From an uncultured delta proteobacterium (GTDB lineage Bacteria; Desulfobacterota; Desulfobacteria; Desulfobacterales; B30-G6), in contig CAWGLD010000006.1 of assembly GCA_963823335.1 (NCBI GenBank), positions 128,314 to 192,313 on the forward strand: DNA of 64,000 bases. The letters are read 5' to 3'. Positions within the stretch are counted from its first letter, which is position 1, and every line of letters starts with the position of its first letter. The translations under genes were made by a program, and so were the position numbers. Positions 11,570-33,038 of this stretch are shown here, in pieces. The notes under the pieces were generated by a model. That model saw nothing but the letters and a program-made list of their open reading frames with translations, was not told the origin of the DNA and ran no database searches.

Positions 11570-12235
11570 TTATGGTGTTACACCAAATCTGAGCCATTTA
11601 AATCTCTTCTGATTATCGATCGACACATATTTTCCAGTACGTGCCATAAATAGATTTTCCGGCTTAAGGCATATATTCGGTTCGTTGGTCTGAAGTTCTT
11701 GAAAGCCAAAAGGATCAAATAATCTGATGAGTATTTTTCGATAAGCCAGTGCAGATTTTGCTGTACCATCCAGATCCCATGTCCAAGAGTACCCCACCAT
11801 ATACACGATCAGTTTCTCCACAATTGAGGGGCGCATCAGCTGCCCCAGGATTCTACCTGCAATCCCGTGGGACCGAAACCGACGGCATATTTCTATGGCT
11901 TTTACCTCCATCATCAATCCGGGCGTCATTTCTTGCCAGCGGTCCCCTTCGTCTGGGGGGCTGAGAACACCAAAACCGATGATATTCTCACCTTCCAATG
12001 CTAAGGTAACATTCGCATTGGCTTGTGATGTATTGTTTTCAAGACTTTCTCTTTTGGTGTAAAGAGACTTGTATTGCGCATGCATGCCAAACTGTCTGTC
12101 AAACGTATAGCGTCGTATCTCTTCCGGTTTGCAGAAAGAGCGGATGCAGATCTTAGGGTTGGAGGGGGTAAGCGCAGGGTTGGAGGGTTGGAGGGGTCGA
12201 GGGTTCGAGGGGGTGTCTTTTGTAGAATATACCAT
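11570..12235 (-). CDS. GNAT acetyltransferase, AcuA-like (start uncertain)
   Basis: 221 aa. YSWTWDLDGTAKSALAYRK and NLFMARTGK resemble recalled B. subtilis AcuA blocks (YYWHWDLKG, NCLMARIGK). The first ~25 codons (PSNPRPLQPSNPALTPSNP) translate a W1 repeat arm, so the true start may be downstream (for example Met at 12085). Confidence 0.6.
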   Translation of the reverse strand: MVYSTKDTPSNPRPLQPSNPALTPSNPKICIRSFCKPEEIRRYTFDRQFGMHAQYKSLYTKRESLENNTSQANANVTLALEGENIIGFGVLSPPDEGDRWQEMTPGLMMEVKAIEICRRFRSHGIAGRILGQLMRPSIVEKLIVYMVGYSWTWDLDGTAKSALAYRKILIRLFDPFGFQELQTNEPNICLKPENLFMARTGKYVSIDNQKRFKWLRFGVTP

Positions 12236-12338
12236 GCAATGATAGCCTTTTAGGGAGTTAGACTGTAGGCTGTTAGGTGCGTATAGCTAAAAGCTCTCAG
12301 CCACCCTCGAACCCTCGAAACCTTGGACCCTCGAACCC
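12153..12338. repeat. W1 hairpin element (full, ~186 bp) with W6-type core
   Basis: The G-rich arm is 12153-12213 and the C-rich arm is 12301-12338 (CCACCCTCGAACCCTCGAAACCTTGGACCCTCGAACCC). The loop contains TTAGACTGTAGGCTGTTAGGTGC, shared with 27540 and 42620. Confidence 0.8.
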
Positions 12339-12343
12339 TTGTT

Positions 12344-12898
12344 TTAAAAATCTGTCCATGTTGAATGCAGTCGTTTGACCATTATCACCATGTCATGGGT
12401 GCCGCCATCCGGGCCGACGGCATAGTTTTGGAGTTCTGCACGTTGAAAAAAATCAAATTTTTTTACGGCCTCGATGGCTGCATCTTCGATGCCTCTGACA
12501 AGATCCGTTCTTAATGTTTCCAGACCTTTGTCCATAGCGGCCTGAATCAAGTCCAGCAATATCCATGTTCCCAGCCGCTTGTTGCGGAATTCCGGCATAA
12601 CGACGATACGGAAACGCCCAACATGCTTGGTAGCACCGAATTCCCTGAAATGTAAACTACCGTGCCCGATCATTTCACTGTTACAGAATGCGATAATGGA
12701 GAACACGGCGCCACTGTCCATGTTTGAAATCCATTTTCGGATAATATCTGGTTTGGTGGTATCATAGCGCATGCACCAACGATCGTTTTCGGGTATTTTT
12801 TTATAAAACCGATTCAGCAGTGATTCGTCCTCCGGTTTCAGTGGACGGATCACTGCTTCTTCACAATCCTTGAGGATACATTCTTTGGGATATCTCAC
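12344..12898 (-). CDS. GNAT family N-acetyltransferase
   Basis: 184 aa. Acetyl-CoA binding motif FRNKRLGTWILLDLIQAA is present. Confidence 0.75.
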   Translation of the reverse strand: MRYPKECILKDCEEAVIRPLKPEDESLLNRFYKKIPENDRWCMRYDTTKPDIIRKWISNMDSGAVFSIIAFCNSEMIGHGSLHFREFGATKHVGRFRIVVMPEFRNKRLGTWILLDLIQAAMDKGLETLRTDLVRGIEDAAIEAVKKFDFFQRAELQNYAVGPDGGTHDMVIMVKRLHSTWTDF

Positions 12899-16662: not shown

Positions 16663-16703
16663 ATAAAATCGTTGCACGATTTTATCTGGCGCGACTTCGT
16701 CGC
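16663..16703. repeat. W8 bipartite hairpin
   Basis: ATAAAATCG-TTGCA-CGATTTTAT, then CTGGC, then GCGAC-TTC-GTCGC, starting 3 nt after the fabG-like stop. Copies are at 34596, 38598 (reverse complement), 54003 and 20680 (reverse complement). Confidence 0.75.
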
Positions 16704-16783
16704 TTTAAGAAGGTACCGTTCTTCAATTTGTTTGGCGTTTCGATAGTCGAATTTAAAGTTTATCAACAGAGGAGAATCTACGT

Positions 16784-17950: not shown

Positions 17951-18006
17951 TTTATATATCATATCAGATTCTTAACAATATCAGATTTGTCAATAATCTT
18001 GTAAAT

Positions 18007-18103
18007 GGGTTCGAGGGATCAAGGATTCAAGGGTTCAAGTGTGGCTGAGGGCTAAAAGCAGACAGCGGCATCCAGGCCTTCAAGCATCCTCGCTTCCCAG
18101 CAT
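18007..18103. repeat. chimeric element: W1-type G arm + core + W12 right arm
   Basis: GGGTTCGAGGGATCAAGGATTCAAGGGTTCAAG, then GTGGCTGAGGGCTAAAAGCAGACAGCGG, then CATCCAGGCCTTCAAGCATCCTCGCTTCCCAGCAT. The two arms belong to different word families. Confidence 0.65.
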
Positions 18104-18116
18104 ACATGGAGGTAAC

Positions 18117-18551
18117 ATGGGAAAAAAAAATGAAATAGATGCTCGTTTTAATAAATTCGGAACAGTCAGTTTTACTGCGACCACCAAAACAAATGACTTT
18201 ATCGACTTCCTGGAGGAGGGAAAGGTCATGGGGTCTCGTTGCACGAGTTGCGGTCTTGTGTTTTTCCCTCCCAGAGCAGATTGCCACCATTGTTTGGGAA
18301 ACGAAATGGAGTGGTTCGAGGTAACAGGTACCGGCAAACTTGTCACCTACAGTAAGCTGACATTTGCGCCCATCGGCTTTGAAGACGACGTGCCCTACTG
18401 TATCGCACTTCTGGACTATGGTGCATTTAAAATTTTTGGGAGAATAGCATCCGGGTTTCCGGACGAAGAGTTACAGATCGGTATGGACATGAAAACAAGC
18501 GCCAACACACTTTCAAACGGCCAGTTGAATTATGTGTTTGGCCGGGCATAA
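18117..18551 (+). CDS. DUF35 OB-fold / Zn-ribbon protein (thiolase partner, BbsA-like)
   Basis: Zn ribbon CTSCGLVFFPPRADCHHC followed by an OB-fold region. I moved the start from the ORF-track 18039 to the ATG at 18117, which is preceded by GGAGG at 18109-18113. Upstream codons translate repeat DNA. Confidence 0.75.
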   Translation: MGKKNEIDARFNKFGTVSFTATTKTNDFIDFLEEGKVMGSRCTSCGLVFFPPRADCHHCLGNEMEWFEVTGTGKLVTYSKLTFAPIGFEDDVPYCIALLDYGAFKIFGRIASGFPDEELQIGMDMKTSANTLSNGQLNYVFGRA

Positions 18552-18585
18552 CACGAATAAGCCGGCTAAGAATATGTTTTATTTA

Positions 18586-18670
18586 ACACGAAATCACGAA
18601 AAAGACCGTGAACAATTTCGTGTTTTTCAGATTTATCCTTTACGGATACTTCGTGCGTGTTTTCGTGATT
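18586..18670. repeat. W3 element, reverse-complement copy
   Basis: CACGAAAAAGACCGTGAACAATTTCGTGTTTTTCAGATTTATCCTTTACGGATACTTCGTGCGTGTTTTCGTGATT aligns nearly base-for-base with the reverse complement of 12971-13071. Confidence 0.8.
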
Positions 18671-18756
18671 GTTTTCTATTACTGTTGCCAGAAAATCATT
18701 TTTTTCAGTTGTGTGACTAAAACAGTATAAAACCATCAAACCCAAGGATTTTAAAC

Positions 18757-19524
18757 ATGACCGACAAAACGATTGTCATCGAAAAATCAGACAGTGTTGC
18801 AACCGTTTATTTTGCAAGACCCAAGCACAACGTGTTCAACATCGACATGATGAATCTTTTCTGCGAGACCCTGGAGGACCTGTCCAAAGATCCTGATATT
18901 AAATGCCTGGTAATAAGGGGTCAAGGTTCGAGCTGGTGTGCCGGCGTCGATGTGGGCGACCACAAACCGGAGATGGCCGATCAGATGATTACAACCTTTA
19001 ACCGTTCCCTGCTGCTTTTGGAATCTCTCGATGTGCCCACCGTGGCGGCCGTACACGGTGCCTGTCTGGGCGGCGGCATGGAATACGCCATTGCGTGCGA
19101 CGTAATCATCGCCGGAGAAAGAGCGAAATTCGGGCAGCCTGAGGTGAAACTAGGATTTCTGCCGCCCTACGCAGCCATTCGTCTGCCTAAGCTGGTAGGA
19201 CCGGCCAAAGCTATTGAAATCTGCTGCTCCGGCAAAGTCTACAGCGCCGATGCAGCCAAATCCATGGGTTTTGTCAGCCTGACCGTTCCGGATGATCAAT
19301 TTGATGCGGCCGTTGATGACTGGCTTGAAGACATTCAGGCAAGCAGTCCGTTAATTCTTCGCCTCAACAAACAGGCCGTGACGCAACATCTCGGCATGAG
19401 AACACCAGAATCATTGCAAAGTGTCGGCAACCTGTTTCTCAACACCCTCATGCAAACAGAGGACACGCTGGAAGGTATTGCCAGTTTTTACGAAAAGAGA
19501 AGACCGAACTGGAAGAATAAATAG
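18757..19524 (+). CDS. enoyl-CoA hydratase/isomerase family protein (possible dienoyl-CoA hydratase)
   Basis: 255 aa. Crotonase fold with SWCAGVDVG and GACLGGGMEYAIACD. The Dch-like role is only a contextual guess. Confidence 0.75.
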   Translation: MTDKTIVIEKSDSVATVYFARPKHNVFNIDMMNLFCETLEDLSKDPDIKCLVIRGQGSSWCAGVDVGDHKPEMADQMITTFNRSLLLLESLDVPTVAAVHGACLGGGMEYAIACDVIIAGERAKFGQPEVKLGFLPPYAAIRLPKLVGPAKAIEICCSGKVYSADAAKSMGFVSLTVPDDQFDAAVDDWLEDIQASSPLILRLNKQAVTQHLGMRTPESLQSVGNLFLNTLMQTEDTLEGIASFYEKRRPNWKNK

Positions 19525-19548
19525 ATAGGCTGTAGGCTTCTATCCTGA

Positions 19549-19773
19549 ATGAAGATGACTCGCGAACAAATACTCAAAAACGAAGGCTGGACAAAACAAT
19601 CCTCCCACGATGAACCCCGCCTGTCCGATATTGTAGAAATGTACGAAGAGATCGGGCTAGAAGTTCTTCTTGAGCCCTTTAACCCGGATGAAGAACCCGG
19701 ATGTACAGATTGCATGCGGGGGTCCGCCCGTAATTACAAGACGATTTACACACGTGATAAACTCAGAATTTAG
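19549..19773 (+). CDS. hypothetical small protein
   Basis: 74 aa ORF tightly spaced after the hydratase gene. It contains a CTDC motif. No family recognised. Confidence 0.4.
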   Translation: MKMTREQILKNEGWTKQSSHDEPRLSDIVEMYEEIGLEVLLEPFNPDEEPGCTDCMRGSARNYKTIYTRDKLRI

Positions 19774-19854
19774 GGGTGGAGGTTTGAAGGGTTGACTGAA
19801 AGCCATCAGCGTTTAGTCACCCTCCACCCCTTCAAACCTCCGACCCTCAAACCC
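19773..19854. repeat. W1 compact hairpin element
   Basis: GGGGTGGAGGTTTGAAGGGTTGAC, loop TGAAAGCCATCAGCGTTTAG, then TCACCCTCCACCCCTTCAAACCTCCGACCCTCAAACCC. It begins on the last base of the TAG stop at 19771-19773. Confidence 0.85.
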
Positions 19855-19879
19855 ATTTCTGTATACCGGGAGCAACACA

Positions 19880-20494
19880 ATGAACTCAATAAACACAAAG
19901 AACCCAAAAAACGCCGCAGCTGAATCTCCCGCCCTTCTCATTATCGACATGGTTAAAGACAACTTCAAGAAAGAAAGAAACCTTCCCATCACACCTCTGG
20001 CGATAAAAACCATCGATCCTTTGAATCAGATCATCCGTTTTTTCCGTTCCCATGCATGGCCGGTTGTTTTTTCAACAGACGCATTCAATAAAAACGACTT
20101 TATCTTTACCGGTAGAATGCTGCCCCATTCGCTGGCCGGAACCGAAGGTGCAGAAGTGGTTGACGCGCTGGATTTTCAGGATACAGATACCTGGCTCCCC
20201 AAACCGCGGTTTTCAGCATTTTTCAAAACCGGACTCGAGAAGATGTTACATGATCGGGGAATTACACTTTGCGCGGTCGCTGGTATCGCCACACCCTTTT
20301 GTGTACTGACAACTGCCATGGATGCCCTGTGCCATGACTTCAAGGCCGTCATTCTAGAAAACTGCTCTACGGCATTTTCAGATGACTTGCACCAGCAAAC
20401 GCTGAGCCTCTATCGGCGCAATCCCCTTTATCCCCTCTTTCGTATCATGACATCCTCTGAACTGATGAATGAACTCAGCCCTGGCATTTCATAG
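19880..20494 (+). CDS. isochorismatase-family cysteine hydrolase
   Basis: 204 aa. ALLIIDMVKDNF and the catalytic Cys context GIATPFCVLTTAMDA are present. Confidence 0.8.
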   Translation: MNSINTKNPKNAAAESPALLIIDMVKDNFKKERNLPITPLAIKTIDPLNQIIRFFRSHAWPVVFSTDAFNKNDFIFTGRMLPHSLAGTEGAEVVDALDFQDTDTWLPKPRFSAFFKTGLEKMLHDRGITLCAVAGIATPFCVLTTAMDALCHDFKAVILENCSTAFSDDLHQQTLSLYRRNPLYPLFRIMTSSELMNELSPGIS

Positions 20495-20723
20495 ATACCC
20501 GGATCTGTTTTTATCCTGTAAGGGGTTTGACTACCGAATAACATCTCCTTTGATATAGAATTATACCGTTTGTCCTAATATTATTCCGAAAATAGGATGG
20601 CGGCATACGGGGTTGTAGCAGAAAAAGGCCCTCAATCGGAACGTTTATCTGACAACCCCTTATACGCTCTTGATGTTACTTGCGGCAAAGCCGCCTAAGA
20701 TAAAAACGCGCAGCGATTTTATC

Positions 20724-20752
20724 TTGACTTAACCGTTTTGTAGCTGTAATGT
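20724..20752 (+). promoter_or_regulatory. candidate sigma70-type promoter upstream of the ior cluster
   Basis: TTGACT (20724-20729), 17-nt spacer, TAATGT (20747-20752). It lies directly after a W8-type hairpin. Confidence 0.45.
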
Positions 20753-20756
20753 AGCT
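20742..20756. promoter_or_regulatory. AGCT-N7-AGCT candidate operator overlapping the -10
   Basis: AGCTgtaatgtAGCT. The same AT-spacer design occurs at 15775-15789, 15584-15598 and 38445-38470. Confidence 0.35.
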
Positions 20757-20839
20757 TCAATTAAATGTATAATCGAAGAGCACCCAGGATCAGATACAAG
20801 GGCCTCTTCCCGGCAAGAAATCGATCTGATTGATTCTTT

Positions 20840-21118
20840 TGCATTCCCCTTAGGTTCTGCCTTGCGGCAATACTTCGCATGCTGCGGGGTTAGCGAGCGA
20901 GTCAACTACCACCCGTGAAACGGGTGGCTTGGATTTCCCCCAAAATGGGGGAAAAACAAAGGAGACGGCACGTCTCCGCAAGTTCAGGTTCGGAGCCGCG
21001 TGCCAAGCACGCGGTTTGTAGAACAATCAAAATTAGACAGAATTCCTTACGGTCGCTGCGAAGCACTTCCGGACGGCAGAACATTCCTCGTAGCTTGCTG
21101 CGAGGTTCTTCAATCGTT
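20840..21118 (+). repeat. T13 twin-hairpin element interrupted by Q125 insertion
   Basis: 20840-20900 (..CATGCTGCGGGGTTAGCGAGCGA) and 21029-21118 (AAAATTAGACAGAATTCCTTACGGTCG..ATTCCTCGTAGCTTGCTGCGAGGTTCTTCAAT) are contiguous in the uninterrupted copy at 27615-27733 (reverse complement). Confidence 0.7.
20901..21028 (+). mobile_element. Q125 four-hairpin element, copy A
   Basis: 128 nt with four consecutive stems: CCACCCG/CGGGTGG, TTCCCCC/GGGGGAA, GGAGACG/CGTCTCC and CCGCGTG/CACGCGG. It matches the reverse complement of 23250-23375 except for 2 substitutions and 2 one-base indels. Confidence 0.7.
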
Positions 21119-21173
21119 ATCCAAATATGTTCGTAAAACACTTTTATTCCCCATAAATCTTAAGGAAACGACC

Positions 21174-23023
21174 ATGCACAAATTACTCACTGATGAGCCG
21201 GGCAAGAAAATGCTTCTTCTCGGAAATGAGGCCATCGCCAGAGGTGCCATCGAAGCAGGTGTCGCCTTTGCCACAACCTATCCAGGAACGCCGTCTTCTG
21301 AAATATCCCTTGCTCTTTTCCAGATGTCTCAGCAGTGCGACCTCTACTTCGAGTACAGCACAAATGAAAAAGTGGCCCTTGAAGTTGCTGCTGGAGCTGC
21401 CAATTCAGGTGTCAAAACCATGTGCATGATGAAACATGTGGGCTTGAATGTTGCAGCAGATCCACTCATGACCCTTGCTTACGTGGGTGTCAAAAGTGGT
21501 CTCGTCATCTTGACTGCAGATGACCCCTTTATGTTTTCGAGCCAGAATGAGCAGGACAACCGCTATTACGGAAAACTTTCGGGTTTGTCGATCATTGAGC
21601 CGTCTTCGGTGGAAGAAGCCAAGGAAATGATCCCTTATGCCTTTGATCTTTCACTAAAACTAAAGGAACCTGTCCTCTTCCGCACCACCACCCGCATTAA
21701 TCACTCCACAGGAATTGTCACCCTTGGTCCCATAGAGGAACGTATTACCAAGGGTACTTTTACAAAAGACCCGTTCAACTTGGTAACAGTGCCTGCTGTT
21801 TCACGAAAACTTCATGTCAAACTCCTGGATAACATTCAGAAAGCCCAGGAAATATCTGAGACATCAGAATACAATTTTTCTTCTGGTAATGGCCCTTGGG
21901 GTGTTGTCTGTAACGGAGTTAGTTACAATTACGTATGCGATGCCATCAAGGATCTGGGGATCGAAGATAAAACCAAACTCCTGCGAATCGGTTTTTCCCA
22001 TCCCTTGCCGGAAAAACGTATCCAGGAATTTATTTCCAGCTGTGAAAAAATACTCGTGGTCGAAGAAGGCGAACCCTTTATGGAAGAGGCCATCAGGTCA
22101 TTTGCACAGGAAATCCAGAGCACCATTCCCATCCAGGGAAAAGGTGAAGGGCTTTTCAGCCAACTTTATGAATTTGACCCCGCCCTGGTCAGGAGGGTTA
22201 TGGGCAAGTTCTTTGGGGTTCCCGTTTCAACGGCTGTGATTCCTGATCTGACCGATGTGCCGGAAATTCCCCAACGGCCGCCCAATCTGTGTGCGGGATG
22301 CTCCCACCGTGCCACTTTTTATGCTGTGGGAAAGGCGCTTGAAGGCCAAGAAACCATTTATCCAACCGATATCGGTTGTTACACACTCGGCTTTCTCCCC
22401 CCCTGTCCAAGGGTGATTTTCTCATTTGCATGGGTTCCTCAGTAAGCACATCCTGCGGGTTCTCAAAAACAACCGATAAAAAAGTCATTTCCTTTATCGG
22501 AGATTCTACATTCTTTCACTCCGGAATAACGGGGCTTGTCAATGCTGTCTTCAACAACCATAACTTCACTTTGATCATTCTCGACAACGGTACTACGGCC
22601 ATGACCGGGCATCAGCCCAACCCAGGTGTGGACATGGGCAATTTTAATCTGACCGATTTTGGCCGTATATCCATTGAAGAACTTGTCAAAGGAATCGGTG
22701 TAAAACATATCTCGAAAATCAAACCCTTCAGATTAAAAAAGAGCATACAGGCGATTAAAGACGCTGTAGCCTACGAGGGTGTCTCAGTAATCATAGCAGA
22801 AGAAATCTGTACCTTATACGCCAAGGGTTTGAAACAGTTAAAGGCCCGCCCCTTCCATGTAACCGACAAATGCAAGGACCATAAGGATTGTATCAGCAGT
22901 TTGGGATGCCCTGCATTTTTTATTGACGAGGGCCGTGTCAAAATTGATCCCGAGATATGTGTGGGATGTGCTGTCTGTGCTCAGATATGCCCTGAAAATG
23001 CAATATTGCCCATGAAATCATAG
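21174..23023 (+). pseudogene. iorA: indolepyruvate:ferredoxin oxidoreductase alpha subunit, interrupted by a frameshift in a C7 run (22397-22403)
   Basis: ORF 21174-22445 ends ...TDIGCYTLGFLPPCPRVIFSFAWVPQ*. The frame shifted by -1 continues LSPPLSKGDFLICMGSSVSTSCGF ... GDSTFFHSG ... CVGCAVCAQICP to 23023. Joined at the C run they give a contiguous ~616-aa IorA with TPP and 2x[4Fe-4S] regions. The start was moved to the ATG at 21174 (MHKLLTDEPGKKMLLLGNEA). Confidence 0.8.
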
Positions 23024-23193
23024 GGACGATTTCATGGAATGCGACCTTGTCGCTCCAACACAAAAGGCTATTAATCACGTATAGTTAGGACGATATGAAA
23101 TATGGATCATCTCCCAAAGAGTTGACCCAAATTAAGGATTCAAGGATTCCAGGGATCCAGGGTTCGAGTGAGATGACGTGAGGCGCCAGCTAA

Positions 23194-23489
23194 ATGCTTA
23201 AGAATTATAAAGAGTTAAAGGTTTGGAAACGCAGACGATGATATCCGGTGATTGTTCTACAAACCGCGTGCTTGGCACGCGGTTCCGAACCTGAACTTAC
23301 GGAGACGTGCCGTCTCCTTTGTTTTCCCCATTTTGGGGGAAATCCAAGCCACCCGTTTCACGGGTGGTAGTTGACTTGGATTATATGAACAAGGAAATGC
23401 TTGAGGAATTAAGAGAGGATCTTGGGGATGTAGAGAGAATGCTAAAAGCGATGATCAACTCCCTGGAAAACAAACACTTGAATCCTTGA
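23194..23489 (+). pseudogene. remnant of a four-helix-bundle (23S rRNA IVS-type) protein gene, middle replaced by Q125 insertion
   Basis: 23194-23241 reads MLKNYKELKVWKRRR*, which is family-typical (YKxLxVW). 23376-23489 reads LDYMNKEMLEELREDLGDVERMLKAMINSLENKHLNP*, which parallels the C-terminus of the intact copy at 55542 (YIDNETFNKLYSQAETVSRLTSGFIKYL). The Q125 element lies between the two pieces. Confidence 0.55.
23250..23375 (-). mobile_element. Q125 four-hairpin element, copy B (inverted relative to copy A)
   Basis: It is the reverse complement of copy A. It lies inside the four-helix-bundle pseudogene, splitting the N- and C-terminal remnants. Confidence 0.7.
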
Positions 23490-23611
23490 ATCCTGGACTC
23501 CTTGAACCCTTTCTCCCAACTGATTGGGAGAAGATCCTGAAATATTAACAAATTTTCTTTTTCGCGCTGCGCAAGCAGCGTGGAAAAAGAAAATTAAAGA
23601 TTGGACACATC

Positions 23612-24217
23612 ATGGAAACAAAAAGACTGATAATTGTAGCGGTGGGTGGCCAGGGAAACCTTCTGGCTTCGAAAGTTCTCGGCGAGGCGGCATTGATTTC
23701 CGACATACCAGTTAAAATGAGTGAAATTCATGGTATGGCTCAGAGGGGCGGCGTTGTTGAGTCCGCTATTGTTTTCGGAGATGCTAAAAGTACCATCATA
23801 TCTGACGGAGAGGCAGATATTCTGGTTGGGTTTGAACCTTCTGAAACCTTGCGTGCCCTGAACAAATGCAGCAAGGAGACAGTGGTTATTACCAACACAT
23901 CACCCCTGCCGCCATTTACCGTTGGCATTGGCATCGGAACATACCCTGACATGGATGAGCTCCAGCGCCTGATCAAGGAGAAAACGAGTCAATTGATTGC
24001 CTTTGATGCGTCTTCTCTGGCAAATCAGGCCGGCAACCCCATGTCTTTAAACATCGTTCTGCTGGGTGCGCTGATTCAGACAGGAATCCTGCCGTTGTCC
24101 GCCGAAAATATAAAGCATGCCATACGTACCACCACAAAACAGGCTTTTGTAGAGACCAATATCAAAGCCTTTGAGCTGGGTTTTTCTGCAGCAGAAAATG
24201 CTATGGAAAAGGAATGA
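23612..24217 (+). CDS. iorB: indolepyruvate:ferredoxin oxidoreductase beta subunit
   Basis: 201 aa. IIVAVGGQGNLLASKVLGEAA and HGMAQRGG motifs are present. It lies downstream of iorA. Confidence 0.85.
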   Translation: METKRLIIVAVGGQGNLLASKVLGEAALISDIPVKMSEIHGMAQRGGVVESAIVFGDAKSTIISDGEADILVGFEPSETLRALNKCSKETVVITNTSPLPPFTVGIGIGTYPDMDELQRLIKEKTSQLIAFDASSLANQAGNPMSLNIVLLGALIQTGILPLSAENIKHAIRTTTKQAFVETNIKAFELGFSAAENAMEKE

Positions 24218-24335
24218 ACATCGAACATTCAACATCGAATTTTGAATGAACAGATGAAGAAACAGATGTGTGACCTGGGGTTGAACTTTTTTCATTCATC
24301 ATTGGACGTTCGATGTTCGATGTTGGACGTTCATC
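24212..24335. repeat. W2 hairpin element between iorB and paaK
   Basis: The left arm is GAATGAACATCGAACATTCAACATCGAATTTTGAATGAAC and includes the iorB TGA stop at 24215-24217. The right arm is TTCATTCATCATTGGACGTTCGATGTTCGATGTTGGACGTTCATC. Confidence 0.8.
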
Positions 24336-24363
24336 TTTTAAAAAATCATCAAGGAGGTATCAA

Positions 24364-25671
24364 ATGCCCTGGAATAAAGAATTCGAGTGCATGCCGGCCG
24401 CAAAACTCAAAGCCTTGCAACTGGAAAAGCTGAAAGAAACGGTTGCGTGGGTATCCAAAAAAGTTCCTTTCTACCAAAAAAAATTCAAGGAAATGGGGGT
24501 TAGACCGGGTGACATTAAACGTCTGGAAGATATCGCCAAATTCCCTGTTACCGTTAAAGAGGATTTGCGCGACAATTACCCCTTTGGCTTGTGTGCAGTG
24601 CCTCTGAAGGAGGTTGTCAGGGTGCACGCCTCCTCAGGAACCACTGGTAAGCCGATTACCGGTCCTTATACCCAAGAAGACCTGGATCAGTGGACAGAAT
24701 GTATGGTCCGGAATTTCTGGGCCGCAGGTGTTCGGCCCGAAGATATCGTTCAGAATGCCTACGGTCATGGACTCTTCACCGGTGGTCTCGGTTTTCATCA
24801 AGGATCGACCGCCCTCAAGTGCACAACGGTTCCAACAAGCGCCGGGCTGACGGAACGTCAGATTACATTGATGAAGGACTTTGGTGCCGATGTGCTCTGC
24901 TGCACACCCTCATATGCATTGACAATTGCGGAACGCGCTGAAGAATTAAAAGTCGATATCCGCAAACTGCCCTTAAGGGTTGGCTTGTTCGGTGCCGAGC
25001 CCTGGACGACTCAAATGCGCATAGAAATTGAAGAACGTATGGGCATCAAGGCGCATGAAGCCTATGGTTTGACGGAACTCGGCGGACCTGGTGTTTCATT
25101 TGACTGCGAGGCTCAGGATGGCCTGCATATCAACGAGGACCACTTTCTGGCCGAAATTGTCGATCCGGTGACCATGGAACCGCTGCCTCTCGGTGAAAAA
25201 GGCGAACTTCTTTTCACATCTTTGCAGCGCAGGGCCATGCCCATGATTCGATATCGTACCAAAGATATCACCAGTCTCAGGCGGGAAAAATGTGCCTGCG
25301 GCCGCACCTTGATCAAAATGAAGAAGGTGTTTGGACGCACTGACGACATGCTGATCATCAGCGGTGTCAACGTGTTCCCATCCCAGATAGAATCCTTGCT
25401 GCTCGACATCGATGAAGTCGAACCGCAGTATCGCATGATTGTACGTAAAAAAGGCTATCTCGACCAGCTCGTGGTTCAGGTTGAAGGCAAAAAAGAAATA
25501 TATGATGCGGGGCCGGACAAGCGTTCAGAAATCGAAGGCAAGATCATGGGGCATATCAAGGGCAATATGGGCATCGGGGTCGAAGTCAATCTTGTAGAGC
25601 CCAAGTTTATCGCCAGAAGCGAAGGCAAGGCCCTGCGTGTTGTGGATGAACGGCCCAAACAATTAAGATAA
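24364..25671 (+). CDS. paaK: phenylacetate-CoA ligase family protein
   Basis: SSGTTGKPITGPYTQEDLDQW is PaaK-typical. The start was moved to the ATG at 24364, which follows AAGGAGG. Upstream codons translate a W2 repeat arm. Confidence 0.85.
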   Translation: MPWNKEFECMPAAKLKALQLEKLKETVAWVSKKVPFYQKKFKEMGVRPGDIKRLEDIAKFPVTVKEDLRDNYPFGLCAVPLKEVVRVHASSGTTGKPITGPYTQEDLDQWTECMVRNFWAAGVRPEDIVQNAYGHGLFTGGLGFHQGSTALKCTTVPTSAGLTERQITLMKDFGADVLCCTPSYALTIAERAEELKVDIRKLPLRVGLFGAEPWTTQMRIEIEERMGIKAHEAYGLTELGGPGVSFDCEAQDGLHINEDHFLAEIVDPVTMEPLPLGEKGELLFTSLQRRAMPMIRYRTKDITSLRREKCACGRTLIKMKKVFGRTDDMLIISGVNVFPSQIESLLLDIDEVEPQYRMIVRKKGYLDQLVVQVEGKKEIYDAGPDKRSEIEGKIMGHIKGNMGIGVEVNLVEPKFIARSEGKALRVVDERPKQLR

Positions 25672-25760
25672 AATACACCCGAGCTAAGGTAAGCGATACT
25701 GATCAAAGATTATATGGATTTTTGCAGATTTTATGCTTCGGATTTAAAGGGGGTATTTAT

Positions 25761-26705
25761 ATGAAAGAAAAATCGTCATTTAGTCCCCGGAAATTCGCTG
25801 TTATCGGTGCTGGCCCTGTGGGATGCATCGTTGCTGCTTTCCTCGCAAAGCACGGCTATGATGTCACCCTTTGCGATATCATGCCTGAATTGCTGAAACC
25901 GGCCCTGGACCCCGGTATCACCCTCGAAGGGGCTGAAAACCTCCTGCAACCGGTAAGCCGTACTTGCCTGACGGTTGACGAACTGGCAGACCACAAACCA
26001 GATGTCATTTTTATTACAGTCAAAGCCAATGCGCTCCCCTTGATCGTATCGGCCATTGAAGGCTTTTATCATGAGGGAATGTTTGTCGTCAGCTGGCAGA
26101 ACGGTATCGACACAGAGCTTGTAATTTCCAAGACCCTTGGAGACAAAGCTTCCCTGCGTGCCGTCGTAAATTACGGTTGTGCTTTAACATCACCCTGTCA
26201 CGTCTCCATGCCATTTCACCACCCACCGCACTTTATTCAGGAGCTCAATCCCGAGTCAAAAGATGCCGCCGTTGCCATTGCCAAGTCCCTAAGCCAGAGC
26301 GGTCTTGAGACAGAGCGCACCGACCAGATTATCTCGATGGTATGGCGCAAAGGGGTTTTGAATGCCTGCATGAATCCTGTATGTGCTGTAACCGGACTCA
26401 CCATGGCTCAGGCCATGAATGATCCTATTGTCTTCAACATTGTCGACAACCTTGTCAAGGAGTGCATCAAGGTTGCACGGGCTAATGAAATCAACTTGGG
26501 GTGGGACTTCTACCCCAATGCCATTGCCTACATGCGTAATGCCGGCAATCATAAACCTTCCATGTTGATGGATATCGAAAATAAACGACGAACGGAGATT
26601 GACTATATCAATGGGAAATTCGTCGAGTATGGCCAGCGGGCTGGCATTGAAACGCCCTACAACATCTCATTGCGTTCCCTGGTTAAAGGGTTAGAATCCA
26701 AATAA
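25761..26705 (+). CDS. 2-dehydropantoate 2-reductase family oxidoreductase (possible 2-oxoacid/arylpyruvate reductase)
   Basis: The Rossmann motif VIGAGPVGC and the family block KPSMLMDIENKRRTEIDYINGKFVEYG are present. The start was moved to the ATG at 25761. Confidence 0.75.
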   Translation: MKEKSSFSPRKFAVIGAGPVGCIVAAFLAKHGYDVTLCDIMPELLKPALDPGITLEGAENLLQPVSRTCLTVDELADHKPDVIFITVKANALPLIVSAIEGFYHEGMFVVSWQNGIDTELVISKTLGDKASLRAVVNYGCALTSPCHVSMPFHHPPHFIQELNPESKDAAVAIAKSLSQSGLETERTDQIISMVWRKGVLNACMNPVCAVTGLTMAQAMNDPIVFNIVDNLVKECIKVARANEINLGWDFYPNAIAYMRNAGNHKPSMLMDIENKRRTEIDYINGKFVEYGQRAGIETPYNISLRSLVKGLESK

Positions 26706-27523
26706 TGGCAGCATCGAAACCCATCTTTGTCGGCGTCGATGTGGGGGCATCCCGAACCAAGCTGGCTATTTTAGACTCAGGGCATCGGCTTCTCGGTCAT
26801 GCTGTCCAAAAATCAGGAACTGATTTTTCTGCAACAGCCGACCTCTGCCTTGAAACATCCCTCAAAATGGCCAACGCGGATAGATCCGATATCAAACGCG
26901 TGGTCTCTACGGGCTATGGCCGAAAAAATGTCACCTACTCTGACGAAACCAAAACCGAAATTGGGTGTCATGCAAAGGGCTGCTACCTGTATTTTCCTTT
27001 TGCGACCACCATTATCGATATCGGCGGACAGGACAACAAGGTAATCAAGCTGGACGACAGGGGTCACAGAACCAGTTTTAAAATGAACCGCAAATGCGCC
27101 GCTGGAACAGGCGCTTTTCTGGAGGAAATGTCCCCACGTTTGGACATCCCTCTCGAAGCAATGGATGGGCTGGCCAGGAAATCTGAGAACATGATTAAAC
27201 TGGGTAGCTTCTGTACTGTATTTTCCGGCACTGAAGTGCTTGAAAACATACGCAAGGGTAAAAAAGTCAGCGATATTATCAAGGGCTTGTTTTATTCGGT
27301 CATTAAGCGGGTCATCGAAATGGATGCATTTACAGATTCCGTGGTGATGACGGGTGGTGTGGTTGCTCATAATCCTTATCTCGTAACCATGATGGAAGAA
27401 ATCATTAATAAACAGATTCTCGTGCCCGAGTTTCCCCAATTGACCGGAGCCATCGGGGCGGCACTGTATGCACATGAAGGGTTTGAGGGTTCGAGGGGTG
27501 GAGGTTTGGAGGGGGGTAGCTGA
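26705..27523 (+). CDS. BadF/BadG/BcrA/BcrD-type ATPase, 2-hydroxyacyl-CoA dehydratase activase (HgdC-like)
   Basis: 272 aa. VGVDVGASRTK, IIDIGGQDNK and CAAGTGAFLE are present. The last ~15 codons (EGFEGSRGGGLEGGS) and the stop codon lie inside a W1 repeat. Confidence 0.85.
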   Translation: MAASKPIFVGVDVGASRTKLAILDSGHRLLGHAVQKSGTDFSATADLCLETSLKMANADRSDIKRVVSTGYGRKNVTYSDETKTEIGCHAKGCYLYFPFATTIIDIGGQDNKVIKLDDRGHRTSFKMNRKCAAGTGAFLEEMSPRLDIPLEAMDGLARKSENMIKLGSFCTVFSGTEVLENIRKGKKVSDIIKGLFYSVIKRVIEMDAFTDSVVMTGGVVAHNPYLVTMMEEIINKQILVPEFPQLTGAIGAALYAHEGFEGSRGGGLEGGS

Positions 27524-27567
27524 ACGCCTACAGCTGTAAGCACCTAACAGCCTACAGTCTAATCCCC
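27476..27567 (+). repeat. W1 G arm + conserved core, overlapping the 3' end of the activase gene
   Basis: GAAGGGTTTGAGGGTTCGAGGGGTGGAGGTTTGGAGGGGGG followed by TAGCTGAACGCCTACAGCTGTAAGCACCTAACAGCCTACAGTCTAATCCCC. The gene's TGA (27521-27523) lies in the core. Confidence 0.8.
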
Positions 27568-27614
27568 TGAAAAACGAATGCTATTGGTAAAGAAATAAAA
27601 AATCAAAACTCATA

Positions 27615-27733
27615 ATTGAAGAACCTCGCAGCAAGCTACGAGGAATCTTCGACCGTAAGGAATTCTTTCTAATTTAGATGCGCTCGCTAACCCCGCAGCA
27701 AGCTACGGGGAATGCGCTCGCTGTTGCGGTTCA
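27615..27733 (-). repeat. T13 twin-hairpin element, full-length copy
   Basis: The reverse complement reads GAACCGCAACAGCGAGCGCATTCCCCGTAGCTTGCTGCGGGGTTAGCGAGCGCATCTAAATTAGAAAGAATTCCTTACGGTCGAAGATTCCTCGTAGCTTGCTGCGAGGTTCTTCAAT. Confidence 0.75.
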
Positions 27734-27757
27734 ACATTAAACTAGTGAGGTAAACCG

Positions 27758-29005
27758 ATGAACGACGAAAAAAAGATCAATATTCGACGATTGAAAACAG
27801 CCCGGGATATGGGGAAATTCATGGCAGACTACTACTATGAATTGGATGATGCATCAAAAAGCGGCAAGCAGAAAATCGCCTGGTGCACCAGTGTGGGGCC
27901 TGCTGAAATCCTCAGGGGCATGGGGTTCCTGACGTACTTTCCGGAAACCCACTCTGCCATGCTCGGCACGACCCGAATGGCTGTGGATCTTATACCCAAA
28001 GCCAATGCAATGGGATATTCTCCGGAAATTTGTTCTTATCTGACTGCCGATATCGGGGCTTTTTTAGAGGGTGTCTCACCTCTATCCAGGGCATTTAAAG
28101 GAATCGAAGGGGTCCCCAAGCCGGACGTGCTGGTATTCAACACCAATCAGTGCCGGGATGTACAGGACTGGTTTGCATGGTATGGTGAAAAATTTAATGT
28201 ACCGGTTGTGGGTGTCCACACCTATCGGGGCGTGAAAGATGTAACACCTTCACACATTACCTCCATTGCCAGGCAGATGGAAAACATTGTCGAGCCGCTG
28301 GAAGAAGTTGCCGGACGAAAACTGGATATGGACGAGTTCAAGCACGCCGTTGGTTTATCCAGGGAGTGCTCAGACCTGTGGGAAAAATGTCTTGCTGCAG
28401 CAGCGGCTAAACCTTCTCCCCTTTCTTTTTTTGATGCCACCACCCTTATGGGCCCGGCTGTCGTTGGTCGCGGAACCCAGAAAGCACTCGATGCATACAA
28501 GCTCCTCCTGGAAGAACTGGAAGAGCGTGTTAGCGATGGAATCGGCACTATAGACAATGAGCGGCACCGCATTTACTGGGACGGCATGCCGGTCTGGGGC
28601 CGTTTGAGCATGCATTCCAAACTGTTTGCAGGCTTGAATGCCAACGTCATTGCATCCACCTACTGCAGTTCCTGGATATTCTCTGCCCTTGAAGCCGAGG
28701 ATCCTTTTAACAGCATGGCCCGGGCCTATACAGAGCTCTTTATCGTCAGGTCCGACGAATATAAAGAACAATATATTAAGGACAAACTCAGCTTGTTCGG
28801 TATCGATGGGGTTGTCTACCATGACGCCAAAACCTGCCCCAACAACTCCAACTGCAGATATGGTATGCCGCAACGACTTGAGGATGAAACTCACATACCA
28901 AGCCTGACCATCAACGGGGACTTAAATGATCTGCGACTTCTATCCGACGAACAGACCAAGACCAATGTGGAAGCGTTTATCGAACAACTGGAAGAAAATA
29001 GTTAA
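27758..29005 (+). CDS. 2-hydroxyacyl-CoA dehydratase family protein (single HgdB/BcrB-like subunit)
   Basis: 415 aa. IAWCTSVGPAEILRGMG is present, with conserved Cys contexts NQCRDVQDW and HDAKTCPNNSN. Confidence 0.8.
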   Translation: MNDEKKINIRRLKTARDMGKFMADYYYELDDASKSGKQKIAWCTSVGPAEILRGMGFLTYFPETHSAMLGTTRMAVDLIPKANAMGYSPEICSYLTADIGAFLEGVSPLSRAFKGIEGVPKPDVLVFNTNQCRDVQDWFAWYGEKFNVPVVGVHTYRGVKDVTPSHITSIARQMENIVEPLEEVAGRKLDMDEFKHAVGLSRECSDLWEKCLAAAAAKPSPLSFFDATTLMGPAVVGRGTQKALDAYKLLLEELEERVSDGIGTIDNERHRIYWDGMPVWGRLSMHSKLFAGLNANVIASTYCSSWIFSALEAEDPFNSMARAYTELFIVRSDEYKEQYIKDKLSLFGIDGVVYHDAKTCPNNSNCRYGMPQRLEDETHIPSLTINGDLNDLRLLSDEQTKTNVEAFIEQLEENS

Positions 29006-29087
29006 CCCAGGGAATCAAAAAGCCGGTTAGAAATTGAAATCCAGAGAAATTGGAAATAATCGTTAATGATAAACTTTAAATCCGAAT

Positions 29088-29239
29088 ATCGAAATACGAG
29101 ACAAATTTTACTATCGAATGTTCAAAGAATCAAAACAACGCAAGGGCTTGGAGTTAAGTTCTTGTTTTAATCATTTGAATTTGGGTATTTTTGTATTGTT
29201 TAGGATTTCGATATTCGTGCTTCGTATTTGATGGAGGAT
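29088..29239. repeat. W11 element (CGAATATCGAAATACGA words)
   Basis: The left arm is AAATCCGAATATCGAAATACGAGACAAA. The right arm is TTTAGGATTTCGATATTCGTGCTTCGTATTT. The same word family occurs at 36949-37032. Confidence 0.6.
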
Positions 29240-29242
29240 ACC

Positions 29243-31321
29243 ATGTTAGACACCCTATTCAGACCCAAATCCGTCGCCATTATCGGCGCATCGACCAAAG
29301 AGCTGTCCATCGGTAACCGCATCATTCGAAACCTTGTGGATTTTGGCTTCAAGGGACCCATTTTCCCTATCAATCCCAAAGCGGATGAGGTCAGGGGCAT
29401 CAAGGCCTACAAGTCCATATTGGATGCGCCGGACAATATCGATGTTGTCCACATGGTCATTCCAGCAAAATTCGTACCCATGGCTGTGGAAGACTGCGGC
29501 AAAAAAGGTGTCAAAAACATCATTATCAACTCGGGTGGTTTTTCCGAAATCGGCCCCGAAGGCGCTGTCTATGAAAAGGCGTTTCTTAAAAAAGCCAGAC
29601 AATACAATATTCGCGTTTTAGGCCCCAATTGCCAGGGAATCATCAATTCAGATCCCGAAGTAAGAGCCTACTGCAATTTTACATTTACCAAGCCCGATAC
29701 TGGTCATATCTCCATCGTGGCCCTCAGCGGTGGGGTAGCTGAAGTTATTCACCAGGGCTTTTCCGCCATGGGCGTAGGCACACGCATCTATGCTTCAAAC
29801 GGTAACGCCTGCGACATCACAATTCCGGAAATCATTCAATACCTCGGTGATGATGACGGGACGCGGGTAATCGTCACATACGTCGAAGGGTTGAGGGATC
29901 CGGCGACCTTCATGAAAGTCGCCCGGGAAGTTGCAGCAAAAAAACCGATCTTGGCTATGAAGGCCGGCAGAACCATGCAGGGGGCCAAAGCTGCAGCTTC
30001 TCATACCGGTGGTTTGGCCAAAGAAGATCTTGCAACAGACCTGATATTTAAAAAAGCCGGCGTACTGACTTTCATGGACGAGGGTGAGTTGATCCAGGCA
30101 GCCGCTGCCTTTGCATCCCAGCCTGTTCCAAAAGGTAATCGTGTGGGTATTATCACCAACACAGGGGGTCCGGCCGTCATCGCTACCGACATACTGGTGG
30201 GTGCCGGTGCGGAAATACCCCCGCTGTCAAAAAAAACAGAAACCCTCCTGAAAGACAGTCTCTTTCCGGAAGCATCTGTCAACAATCCGGTAGATGTGCT
30301 TGCCACGGGGAATGCCGCGCATTACCGAACATGTATGGATGCCATGATAGCAGACGATAGTTTTGATGCCCTCTATATCAATTTCGTAACACCCTTTTTT
30401 GTTGACACGGACAGCATCGCCAAGGAGATTGCCGCGGTCAATCAACAGGGGCGAAAGCCAATGGTCTGCAACCTGATGACGGACAAAAAACAGTGGGCGG
30501 AAACTACAAACATTCTGATGCAGGCGCAAGTTCCGACATATGCCCTGCCGGGCGAGGCTGCACGTGCCATGACTGCGCTGGTACGTTACCAGGGTATTCT
30601 GGCCCGTGACATAGGAGACGCTGCTGTTTTCAACGATGTAGACAAAGACAACGTCAGTGGAATTCTTAGCCGTGCCAAAGAGGCTGGGCTCACGTTTCTG
30701 ACGGCTGCGGACGCATACGATATACTGGGGGCATATGGCATTCCTTCGGCAAAATGGTCCATGGTGAACACGGCCGAACAGGGAGCCGCTGCCGCCGAAG
30801 ACATGGGGTATCCTGTTGTTGTCAAGGCAGACGCAGCTTCCATTGTACACAAAAGCGACATGGGTGCTGTGGCTGTGAATCTCAAGACTGCCGCCGAGGT
30901 TCAAAAAACCATCTCTGGAATGCGTGAACGTCTTAAAACGGACGATCTCAAGTTCTTTGTCCAGAAATATCTTCCAGGAGGACTTGAAATTATTCTGGGC
31001 GCCAAGGCGGAACCCGGTCTGGGTCATTTGATCATGTTCGGGATGGGAGGTATCTACGTCGAAGTACTCAAAGATGTGGTGTTCAACCTGACACCGGTAA
31101 CTTCATTTGAGGCTAGAGAAATGCTCGATGCCATTCAGCTGTCACCTATTTTAAAGGGTGTCCGGGGTCAGAAAGGGATATGTCGAGACGGCGTCACGGA
31201 CATCATTCAACGTTTGTCACAGCTCGTTTTGGATCACCCCATGATCCAGGAGCTGGACTTGAATCCCACATTGGCGTTTGAAGACAGGGTGGTAGTGGTG
31301 GATGCGAGGATCAGCATTTAG
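29243..31321 (+). CDS. ADP-forming acyl-CoA synthetase (fused alpha/beta, ACS-II-like)
   Basis: The CoA-binding N-terminus SVAIIGAS, the succinyl-CoA-synthetase-like flavodoxin domain (HTGGLA phosphohistidine loop) and a C-terminal ATP-grasp are present. The start was chosen at the ATG at 29243 after GGAGGA (29233-29238). Confidence 0.85.
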   Translation: MLDTLFRPKSVAIIGASTKELSIGNRIIRNLVDFGFKGPIFPINPKADEVRGIKAYKSILDAPDNIDVVHMVIPAKFVPMAVEDCGKKGVKNIIINSGGFSEIGPEGAVYEKAFLKKARQYNIRVLGPNCQGIINSDPEVRAYCNFTFTKPDTGHISIVALSGGVAEVIHQGFSAMGVGTRIYASNGNACDITIPEIIQYLGDDDGTRVIVTYVEGLRDPATFMKVAREVAAKKPILAMKAGRTMQGAKAAASHTGGLAKEDLATDLIFKKAGVLTFMDEGELIQAAAAFASQPVPKGNRVGIITNTGGPAVIATDILVGAGAEIPPLSKKTETLLKDSLFPEASVNNPVDVLATGNAAHYRTCMDAMIADDSFDALYINFVTPFFVDTDSIAKEIAAVNQQGRKPMVCNLMTDKKQWAETTNILMQAQVPTYALPGEAARAMTALVRYQGILARDIGDAAVFNDVDKDNVSGILSRAKEAGLTFLTAADAYDILGAYGIPSAKWSMVNTAEQGAAAAEDMGYPVVVKADAASIVHKSDMGAVAVNLKTAAEVQKTISGMRERLKTDDLKFFVQKYLPGGLEIILGAKAEPGLGHLIMFGMGGIYVEVLKDVVFNLTPVTSFEAREMLDAIQLSPILKGVRGQKGICRDGVTDIIQRLSQLVLDHPMIQELDLNPTLAFEDRVVVVDARISI

Positions 31322-31376
31322 CTCATAGCCTTTAGCTGTTAGATAGCTATCAGCTAAGGGCTAACAGCTATGAGCT
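31320..31376. repeat. W6 hairpin (AGCTCATAGC..GCTATGAGCT)
   Basis: AGCTCATAGCCTTTAGCTGTTAG, loop ATAGCTATCAGCTAAGGG, then CTAACAGCTATGAGCT. It starts inside the TAG stop (31319-31321). Confidence 0.8.
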
Positions 31377-31463
31377 GCGTCGTGTTGATAGATTCAGAAT
31401 AGTTTTAACTTCTCTTACTTACATAACAAGCAACGCTTTAATAAGACGCATAAGGAGACGCCC

Positions 31464-33029: not shown

Positions 33030-33038
33030 TTTCATAAA

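Follow-up and report, generated by a model that had tools for sequence, protein, structure and literature searches.

The stretch analysed here, referred to throughout as the window, is a 64,000-nucleotide segment of contig CAWGLD010000006.1 from an uncultured delta proteobacterium. Its GC content is about 47%, and its closest protein homologs occur in metagenome-assembled genomes named Desulfobacterales or Desulfobacteraceae. The genes are metabolic, co-directional and densely packed, and the spacers between them are made largely of tandem arrays with periods of 7, 8 or 9 nt, many of which pair into hairpins. We are concerned here with one family of these arrays, W1, a G-rich tandem array of the octamer GGGTTNGA. 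Seven of its nine arms in the window lie against the stop codon of the upstream gene, and comparison with orthologs indicates that in several genes the array provides the stop itself, along with the last residues of the protein.

The focal element

The copy that served as the starting point lies between a gene of 74 residues and an isochorismatase gene. Related loci are designated below by L numbers.

19549-19773, plus strand: conserved 74-residue gene, with 102 homologs of 56-90 residues and synteny in L242-L245
19763-19796, plus strand: focal W1 G-arm, with TAG 19771-19773 inside it; the inverted-repeat arms are 19769-19794 and 19825-19850
19797-19819, plus strand: loop and core of the focal hairpin, CTGAAAGCCATCAGCG...
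19820-19854, plus strand: focal C-arm, that is, a minus-strand G-array, whose G-strand 5' end faces the start of the next gene, 25 nt off
19855-19879, plus strand: ribosome-binding-site region 5' of the isochorismatase ATG, retained in all relatives; right-hand limit of the element

Homologs of the 74-residue protein share a conserved core that ends in ...YKTIYTRxK and is followed by variable tails (LRI, LRV, PRV or LKS). In the window, the last two or three codons and the stop (CTC AGA ATT TAG) are part of a first, decayed W1 unit, which reads AGAATTTAG here and AGGGTTTGA at the same position in orthologs. The true start of the arm is thus about 8 nt 5' of position 19773, where the initial annotation had placed it, so the stop at 19771 is also inside the arm. 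In L242 and L243 the gene ends in LRV or PRV followed by the stop, encoded by CTC or CCC AGG GTT TGA, which is a canonical W1 unit; the window has AGA ATT TAG. In L244 it ends in LKS, with the TAA in the loop of a hairpin of another repeat family, W8, the left arm of which encodes these last three residues. The sole open reading frame (ORF) internal to the focal spacer (TTG 19792-19923) is out of frame with the ATG at 19880, and its start is not at the stop.

W1 arrays in the window

Repeats in the window were defined by the arrays reported by Tandem Repeats Finder (TRF) together with manual reading; marking by recurring 9-mers or 10-mers was dropped, the background in coding DNA being 72% and 22%. 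TRF assigns W1 a period of 8 and the consensus AGGGTTCG / AGGGTTGG, at 2950, 12176, 27478, 40025 and 42565. G-arrays on the coding strand start at 2951, 12176, 18007, 19773, 23134, 27476, 36720, 40025 and 42565, with decayed copies at 36831 and 56553, and C-arms, that is, minus-strand G-arrays, are found at 12339, 19854, 23511 and 40240. Three or four copies are therefore paired (12176/12339, 19773/19854 and 40025/40240, plus the distant pair 23134/23511). No inverted-repeat partner arm is present for the five solitary copies at 2951, 18007, 27476, 36720 and 42565. The arms other than the focal one are as follows.

2951-2989, plus strand: solitary W1 G-arm, 5 nt past TAA 2943-2945 of an AMP-binding gene; no fold (z score +0.5)
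12296-12339, minus strand: W1 G-arm, 5 nt past TAA 12346-12344 of a GNAT gene, with the W1 core next to it; partner at 12176-12216
12176-12216, plus strand: partner G-array, the C-arm of the minus-strand transcript
18007-18040, plus strand: W1 G-arm, an exception, 56 nt past the stop at 17950; the spacer before it is conserved in L119 and L120
23134-23168, plus strand: W1 G-arm, an exception, 110 nt past the stop at 23023, with a W8-like hairpin between; partner C-arm at 23477-23511
27476-27575, plus strand: W1 G-arm (about 27476-27518) and core; the activase ORF runs through the arm
36718-36760, plus strand: W1 G-arm, with the MutY stop TGA 36726-36728 inside it
40024-40047, plus strand: W1 G-arm, the first unit of which, TGAGGGTT, holds the stop of a gene for an FAD-binding subunit; pairs with 40203-40241
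40203-40241, plus strand: C-arm partner of the arm at 40024, 55 nt 5' of ATG 40297
42565-42645, plus strand: W1 G-arm (42565-42601) and core; the first unit holds TGA 42571-42573 of a molybdopterin subunit gene

In the lineage of the window, the G-array is followed on its 3' side by a conserved core, itself built of arrays, which runs from GGCTGAnAGCTnnCAGC through CACCTAACAGCCTACAGTCTAA to CCCCTAAAAGGCTATCA. The W1 array is the 5' module of a dispersed repeat of about 100 nt that is co-oriented with transcription and composed in turn of short arrays. W1-core units stand in tandem in eight of the 22 copies listed, and at the junction between them ...GGCTAATAA is directly followed by GGGTT.

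Position of the arms relative to stop codons

It had been noted from the sequence that W1 arms start at or inside the stop codon of the upstream gene in seven of nine cases. Direct reading bears out all seven relations, although the wording fits only five of them; the arms at 2951 and 12338 lie 5 nt beyond the stop. The seven range from this distance to complete overrun of the stop. TAA 2943-2945 is followed by GGAAA and then by the array from 2951; on the minus strand, TAA 12346-12344 is followed by AACAA and then by the array from 12338. TAG 19771-19773 is overlapped by the array. The activase ORF runs through the entire arm at 27476-27516 and ends at TGA 27521-27523, thereby gaining a tail of 15 residues, EGFEGSRGGGLEGGS. 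The TGA codons at 36726, 40024 and 42571 are inside or at the first W1 unit. The ORFs upstream of W1 arms are all real genes, as judged from Pfam matches or homologs.

The two exceptions named in the initial annotation are likewise genuine. The arm at 18007 is preceded by a 56-nt spacer conserved in two relatives (L119 and L120), and the arm at 23134 is stacked behind the W8-like hairpin, which itself begins at the stop. The spacer at 17951-18006 lies 3' of a thiolase-like gene and holds two direct copies of ATATCAGATT; the W1 array goes no further than the edge of this spacer, which may be a protein-binding site.

Under uniform placement of every arm in the spacer where it is found, the probability of seven or more such positions among nine is 1e-5, although this null is naive because the spacers consist mostly of repeats. 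Three W1-like arrays were absent from the earlier list (12176-12216, 36831-36880 and 56553-56566). Since each of these sits behind other repeats, the stop-adjacent fraction is nearer 7/12. The adjacency is not a property of W1 alone. As the initial annotation stated, W6 hairpins begin on the TAG stops at 31319 and 56533, a W2 arm contains the iorB TGA at 24215, and W8 hairpins start 0-3 nt past the stops at 16660, 34599 and 54000. Together with GCTGGGAG arrays, described below, several unrelated families thus share the position, which argues against a family-specific target site.

Stops and C-terminal tails supplied by arrays

Comparison of ortholog C-termini upholds the proposal that the element provides the stop codon and the last residues in the case of the activase, MutY and the 74-residue protein. 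Among the 120 activase homologs listed, 47 have at most three residues past the conserved ...GAALYA, typically ending ...GAALYAM[EAQ] and the stop at 256-258 residues. In 20 of the 27 closest homologs (78-98% identity), this position is followed by tails such as EGFEGSRVQGSEGG, EGFKDSRGQG or EGSKDPSVR. These tails are translated octamer arrays, and all of them begin at the same codon; the array therefore replaced the native activase stop and was inherited through a clade. The activase of L121 has no tail, and a different repeat, W8, is found there, the TAAAATCG of which begins with the stop. An exact look-up returned no identical protein on record for the window activase.

MutY ends in ...LREAM, after which a W1 array (window) or GCTGGGAG arrays (L119 and L120) set in at the same codon position, so that the last residues and the stop come from an array in all three. 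In relatives, unrelated repeat families act alike at these gene ends. The 3' end of a gene is not fixed in these genomes: native stops are overwritten by arrays, the protein gains or exchanges 2-15 residues at its C-terminus, and such alterations outlast speciation. Overwritten stops have consequences for gene annotation, for comparisons of ortholog length and for protein C-termini.

Junction lengths and turnover of arrays

Element-free junctions in close relatives are short, amounting to an ATGA overlap (L245) or to 5 (L242), 17, 24 (window), 33 (L120) and 50 nt (window). All relatives retain, at the focal junction, the 25 nt of ribosome-binding region that precede the following ATG. L119 and L120, which are 97% identical over 15.6 kb, differ by 11 indels of at least 7 nt, seven of which are within arrays. 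Whole units make up four of the seven (7, 8, 8 and 27 nt), so the arrays change by slippage. Two others are array blocks of 39 nt, one at each edge of the DUF35-ECH spacer (L119 2636-2735, L120 2702-2723), situated after the TGA and before the ribosome-binding site. Between close relatives, the content of orthologous junctions turns over fast. No target-site duplication was found at the window copies or at the L119/L120 presence/absence junction.

These data raise the question of whether junction geometry alone, or chance, accounts for the adjacency; that is, whether repeats simply fill short junctions, with the G-arm as the outermost module. The short element-free junctions agree with this idea, as does the fact that window spacers today are mostly repeats and that TRF arrays also reach within 7-12 nt of start codons. 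Its predictions for longer spacers are taken up with the independent samples below.

Folding of the arms

The initial annotation had suggested, as one of two possibilities, that elements are retained at gene ends because they work as terminators or 3' stabilisers. The paired copies do form very stable hairpins, at 19765-19860 (-42 kcal/mol, z -6.2) and 12170-12345 (-69 kcal/mol, z -6.6), with the stem beginning at the stop in each case, and at 40020-40250 (-74 kcal/mol, z -6.4), with the stop within the stem. The five solitary arms of the nine fold no better than shuffles (z -1.4 to +0.6). No W1 hairpin is followed by a T-run (ATTTCTGTATACC follows the focal one), and a terminator scan of 18000-37999 listed none of the W1 copies covered (18007, 19773, 23134, 27476 and 36720). 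RNAalifold on 16 W1-core copies gave a weak consensus fold of -11 kcal/mol with a covariation term of +0.62 and one compensated pair, and there was no match in Rfam. Because the solitary arms do not fold and neither a T-run nor covariation was found, a role in termination is not supported; moreover, most W1 copies are inside conserved operons, where termination would be harmful.

A broader form of the proposal is that arrays at stops are kept at the RNA level as 3' stabilising stem-loops, as terminators, or as translation-attenuating structures in the footprint of the terminating ribosome. Its support comes from the stable stems with their start at the stop, from the conservation of the element at the 3' ends of the activase and thiolase genes among relatives whose proteins are 80-98% identical, and from the co-orientation of W1-core copies with transcription in 15 of 16 cases. 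Nonetheless, more than half of the arms are solitary, the turnover at orthologous junctions is fast, and the closeness of arrays to starts on the opposite strand, described below, has no common reading at the RNA level. We therefore regard retention of this kind as unlikely. By likeness to REP elements near stops, a stabilising or translation-attenuating role is possible for the paired copies.

A G-quadruplex was also considered, with GGGTTCGA and GGGTTTGA as candidate tetramers. At least four G3 tracts are present in 8 of 13 window arms, but loops of at most 7 nt, and thus the canonical motif, in only one of the 13. In the cross-phylum matches listed, the tract count peaks at three, in part since the search pattern demands three. 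The quadruplex reading is weakly supported.

Polarity of G-rich arrays in independent samples

To extend the analysis beyond the window, an exact scan for GGGTTNGAGGGTTNGAGGG was made with one genome per species, which yielded 107 non-redundant arrays among the matches listed; these include Bacteroidota, Desulfobacterota, Cyanobacteria, Acidobacteriota, Verrucomicrobiota and others. An array was called stop-adjacent if a co-directional ORF of at least 100 codons had its stop starting between -15 and +5 nt from the array edge. By this definition, 31 of the 107 GGGTTNGA arrays listed are stop-adjacent (29%), as compared with 3.2% of 5000 random positions. At these junctions TAA or TGA is directly followed by GGG, or 1-10 nt separate the stop from the array.

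Of 46 solitary arrays drawn from many phyla, 36 are nearer to the 5' neighbour and 10 to the 3' neighbour (p = 1.6e-4). On the 5' side of the G-strand, the median distance is 5.5 nt to stops and 26 nt to starts on the other strand; on the 3' side, it is 207 nt to starts and 62 nt to stops. The adjacency is thus not confined to stops: with its 5' end the G-strand hugs any ORF that lies there, and with its 3' end it does not. The same arrangement is seen within a single L119 spacer, which carries a pair of G-rich arrays that differ in family and in strand, one 1 nt past the TGA and the other directly before the ribosome-binding site, with a unique centre between them; L120 retains the centre alone. 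This 5'-edge rule now covers a second unit type and many phyla, and is therefore a general intergenic feature of bacteria.

Among the metagenome W1-core copies listed, about 8 of 17 evaluable ones are within 8 nt of a stop, and the others are mostly stacked behind other repeats or another copy. The chain heuristic used to locate array starts in these loci was noisy, and manual curation was applied. A strict regular-expression detector of G-arrays retrieved only 15 arrays from Desulfobacterota loci and added nothing.

Chance is excluded by the comparison with random positions and by the placement probability in the window. Geometry alone also fails in the cross-phylum sample: adjacency is found where 60-900 nt are usually left before the next ORF on the 3' side, and neither the 5'/3' asymmetry nor the orientation bias follows from it. 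We consider it a very improbable explanation.

The other possibility put forward in the initial annotation was that the elements target gene 3' ends or terminator hairpins very precisely. In its general form, an unknown recombinase, transposase or template-switching event would integrate arrays at gene ends, the adjacency marking the insertion site; the target could be T(A/G)(A/G) with A-rich sequence next to it, or a pre-existing 3' hairpin. Several observations fit such integration, namely the sharp peak at 0-8 nt even where a long spacer remains, the co-orientation of W1-core copies with the upstream gene (15 of 16), and the presence of different families at the same gene end in different lineages. 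In addition, A-rich linkers of 0, 5 or 8 nt recur between the stop and the first GGG (TAA GGAAA, TAA AACAA, TAA GAGCA, TAA GACCA and TAA AAAAA), and at the tandem junction ...GGCTAATAA followed by GGGTT, TAATAA directly precedes GGG, so that the element may bring its own TAA.

However, partial units largely account for the stop-like triplets ahead of the first GGG, and neither a target-site duplication nor a junction of fixed phase was found. Nothing like a transposase was noticed among the ORFs of the 64-kb window, and at least five unrelated repeat families would all require one target. Finally, arrays are equally close to start regions on the opposite strand, as also reported for other G-rich repeats (PMC4692102). 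Precise targeting of stop codons, as originally worded, is not supported, given this equal tightness on the 5' side and the same adjacency in several unrelated families. Targeted integration at gene ends in the wider sense seems to us rather unlikely; judging from the sequence, a looser targeting of gene boundaries, or a role as 3' stabiliser, is possible.

A boundary effect as the proposed explanation

Given the positions, the replaced stops, the unit-wise slippage and the polarity described above, the reading we prefer, and to which we give about an even chance, is that the stop adjacency of W1 is a boundary effect: slippage-prone arrays would fill junctions up to the first constrained base. 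Arrays are proposed to colonise junctions that, when free of elements in close relatives, measure no more than about 50 nt and may even overlap by 1 nt. As the downstream part of such a junction would be the ribosome-binding region of the next gene, the sole tolerated site would be the stop, give or take a few bases. The 5' end of the G-strand would then come to rest against the nearest constrained sequence, either a stop or the ribosome-binding region of a start on the opposite strand. When an array overruns a stop, the ORF would usually close again after a few codons, 2-15 in the cases observed, since TGA and TAG are frequent in the units and a period of 8 nt shifts the frame from one unit to the next; loss of the native stop could thus be tolerated, and could persist through speciation. 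Both exceptions in the window lie behind a conserved spacer or another repeat, and we count them in favour of the boundary effect. Two candidate causes of the polarity may be considered: polar loss of the 5' flank during copying of the G-strand, or selection against G-rich, Shine-Dalgarno-like sense arrays upstream of starts.

Several results weigh against this explanation. Junctions were not always tight: in L247, a more distant relative that lacks arrays, the spacers measure 60-184 nt. In other phyla, where long sequence is left 3' of the arrays, geometry alone does not suffice. The direction of change, insertion or loss, could be polarised at no junction. Co-orientation in 15 of 16 W1-core copies exceeds what a boundary blind to orientation predicts, which suggests added selection or oriented insertion. 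As to the polarity, the mechanism is inferred; with the canonical motif in one arm of 13, polar deletion driven by quadruplexes is weakly grounded for W1.

A bolder formulation would be that some process acts regardless of repeat family, adding or lengthening short tandem arrays right at the boundaries of ORFs in many bacterial phyla, at stops on one strand and at ribosome-binding edges on the other, and that it thereby continually rewrites stops and C-terminal residues. We judge this quite improbable; a strand-polar mutational mechanism linked either to G-rich arrays being copied or to the point where coupled transcription-translation ends would be a candidate for such a process. The many natural alleles of W1, paired or solitary, overlapping the stop or 5 nt away from it, could be used to test effects on translation termination, mRNA ends and replication.

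Other repeat families and features of the window

The W8 element consists of two small hairpins, (A)TAAAATCGTnnnACGATTTTAT and GCGACTTCGTCGC, and its TAA is often the stop of the upstream gene. It is found in the window at 16664-16705, 23027-23055, 34600-34640, 38390-38420 and 54004-54045, as well as in L120, L121, L244 and L245. The W6-type array CCTAACAGCCTACAGTCTA (complement TAGACTGTAGGCTGTTAGG) often forms hairpins with its own complement and is very widespread in environmental contigs, far outside the W1 lineage, among the matches listed (L122-L241). A palindromic family, CCYCGYAGCWWGCTRCGRGG, occurs in several spacers 3' of array elements, at about 3070, 27640-27720 and 48170-48250. The string GGTTCGA resembles a tRNA T-loop.

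Arrays are also found at start codons. Nine-base arrays of the AACNCAAYA family lie across starts at 19874-19912, 43848-43903, 52979-53103 and 55472-55522, where they encode N-termini; they are translated in frame because the unit is a multiple of three. The N-terminus of the isochorismatase, MNSINTKNPKN, is coded by such an array, and the same array-coded start is present in L242-L244. A-rich heptamer arrays at 42650-42681 and 49229-49265 end 7-8 nt before the ATG codons at 42690 and 49273, and a third, at 44427-44464, overlaps a TTG start at 44463. No Shine-Dalgarno motif lies between the array and ATG 42690, the one start examined in this respect. These arrays recall the TAACTGA repeats found 5' of starts in Beggiatoaceae.

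Inverted copies of a segment of about 70 nt (20909-20977 and 23301-23367) bracket iorA, each with two small GC hairpins (CCACCCGTGAAACGGGTGG and GGAGACGTGCCGTCTCC) that have T-rich tails. The iorA gene itself (21000-23023) is split in the window into overlapping ORFs at 21000-22445 (POR_N) and 22376-23023 (TPP_enzyme_C and Fer4). The split is also present in L120, and a single gene of 613-616 residues is found in L119 and L242-L244; the split is a frameshift or an assembly error.

Comparison with known systems

The paired W1 copies resemble intrinsic terminators in having a GC-rich, stable hairpin soon after the stop, in three or four cases. They differ in that there is no U-tract, the stems of 25-40 bp enclose long loops, the solitary arms are unfolded, and the copies lie inside operons. 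With miniature inverted-repeat transposable elements such as Nezha and Correia (CREE), W1 shares many dispersed copies and, in the paired ones, terminal inverted repeats 80-380 nt from arm to arm. Unlike these elements, over half of the W1 copies are one-armed, W1 arms are composed of tandem sub-repeats and change through slippage of units, and no target-site duplication or related transposase was found. Integron attC sites were considered for the GCCTAAC/GTTAGGC strings of W6 units, and were set aside because the flanking genes form syntenic core metabolic operons in all relatives.

The REP/BIME (REPIN) elements of enterobacteria and pseudomonads are dispersed extragenic palindromes, mostly located 3' of genes and often in operons, and they stabilise upstream mRNA segments. 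Each REP is one imperfect palindrome that carries a conserved GTAG at its 5' end and has its own RAYT transposase. Liang, Rudd and Deutscher are said to have found in 2015 that E. coli REP within 15 nt of a stop attenuate translation of the upstream gene. W1, in contrast, consists of tandem octamers, often lacks a partner arm and does not contain GTAG. The mycobacterial interspersed repetitive units (MIRU), reportedly described by Supply and co-workers in 1997, are said to be units of 46-100 bp, often in tandem, that occupy operon junctions in the orientation of the flanking genes. Their ends reportedly overlap the stop and start codons of the neighbours, and small ORFs are said to bridge stop and start for translational coupling. 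W1 is similar in its co-orientation (15 of 16), its location at operon junctions and its tandem units (eight of the 22 copies listed), but it is built of 8-nt sub-repeats, and no bridging ORF is present in the focal spacer.

Tandem intergenic 7-mers with stops in all three frames are known as the TAACTGA direct repeats of Beggiatoaceae and as the cyanobacterial heptamer STRR arrays (MacGregor 2015, PMC4679880). Thirteen TAACTGA sets overlap the stop of the upstream gene, and the repeat is shared among distant phyla (PMC4679880). The TAACTGA sets are A/T-rich and lie mainly just 5' of start codons in forward orientation, whereas W1 is G-rich.

The closest parallel concerns the heptamers GGGAATC and GGGGA(C/T)T (GGGNATC) which Rehm et al. 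(2015, PLoS One, PMC4692102) described from annotated genomes of Xanthomonas and Nostoc. These heptamers lie on the coding strand 0-50 bp from the stop, overlaps included, and nearer to the 5' neighbour whatever its orientation; they are over-represented between co-directional ORFs, and their unit number varies among close relatives. Inverted copies can form stem-loops, and their function was left unresolved in that work (PMC4692102). W1 agrees with these repeats in its tandem G-rich unit, which falls in the range of 7-9 nt, in its location on the coding strand near or over the stop, and in the 5'-neighbour rule. It differs in that its unit is the octamer GGGTTNGA, not GGGNATC, no preference for four units was seen in a count shaped in part by the search pattern, and canonical quadruplex motifs are rare in the arms of the window. 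Moreover, W1 is the 5' module of the composite of about 100 nt, which is found as tandem copies too and has a strong bias to the orientation of genes, and for W1 it is documented that native stops were replaced, with C-terminal tails shared by a clade. Searches of the literature, both for the strings of the W1 unit and for octamer repeats among sulfate-reducing bacteria, returned no paper. Thus, G-rich tandem repeats at or over stops that follow a 5'-neighbour rule have already been described; what is new here is the octamer family with its composite of about 100 nt, its occurrence across phyla, and the evidence from orthologs that native stops have been replaced and tails gained.

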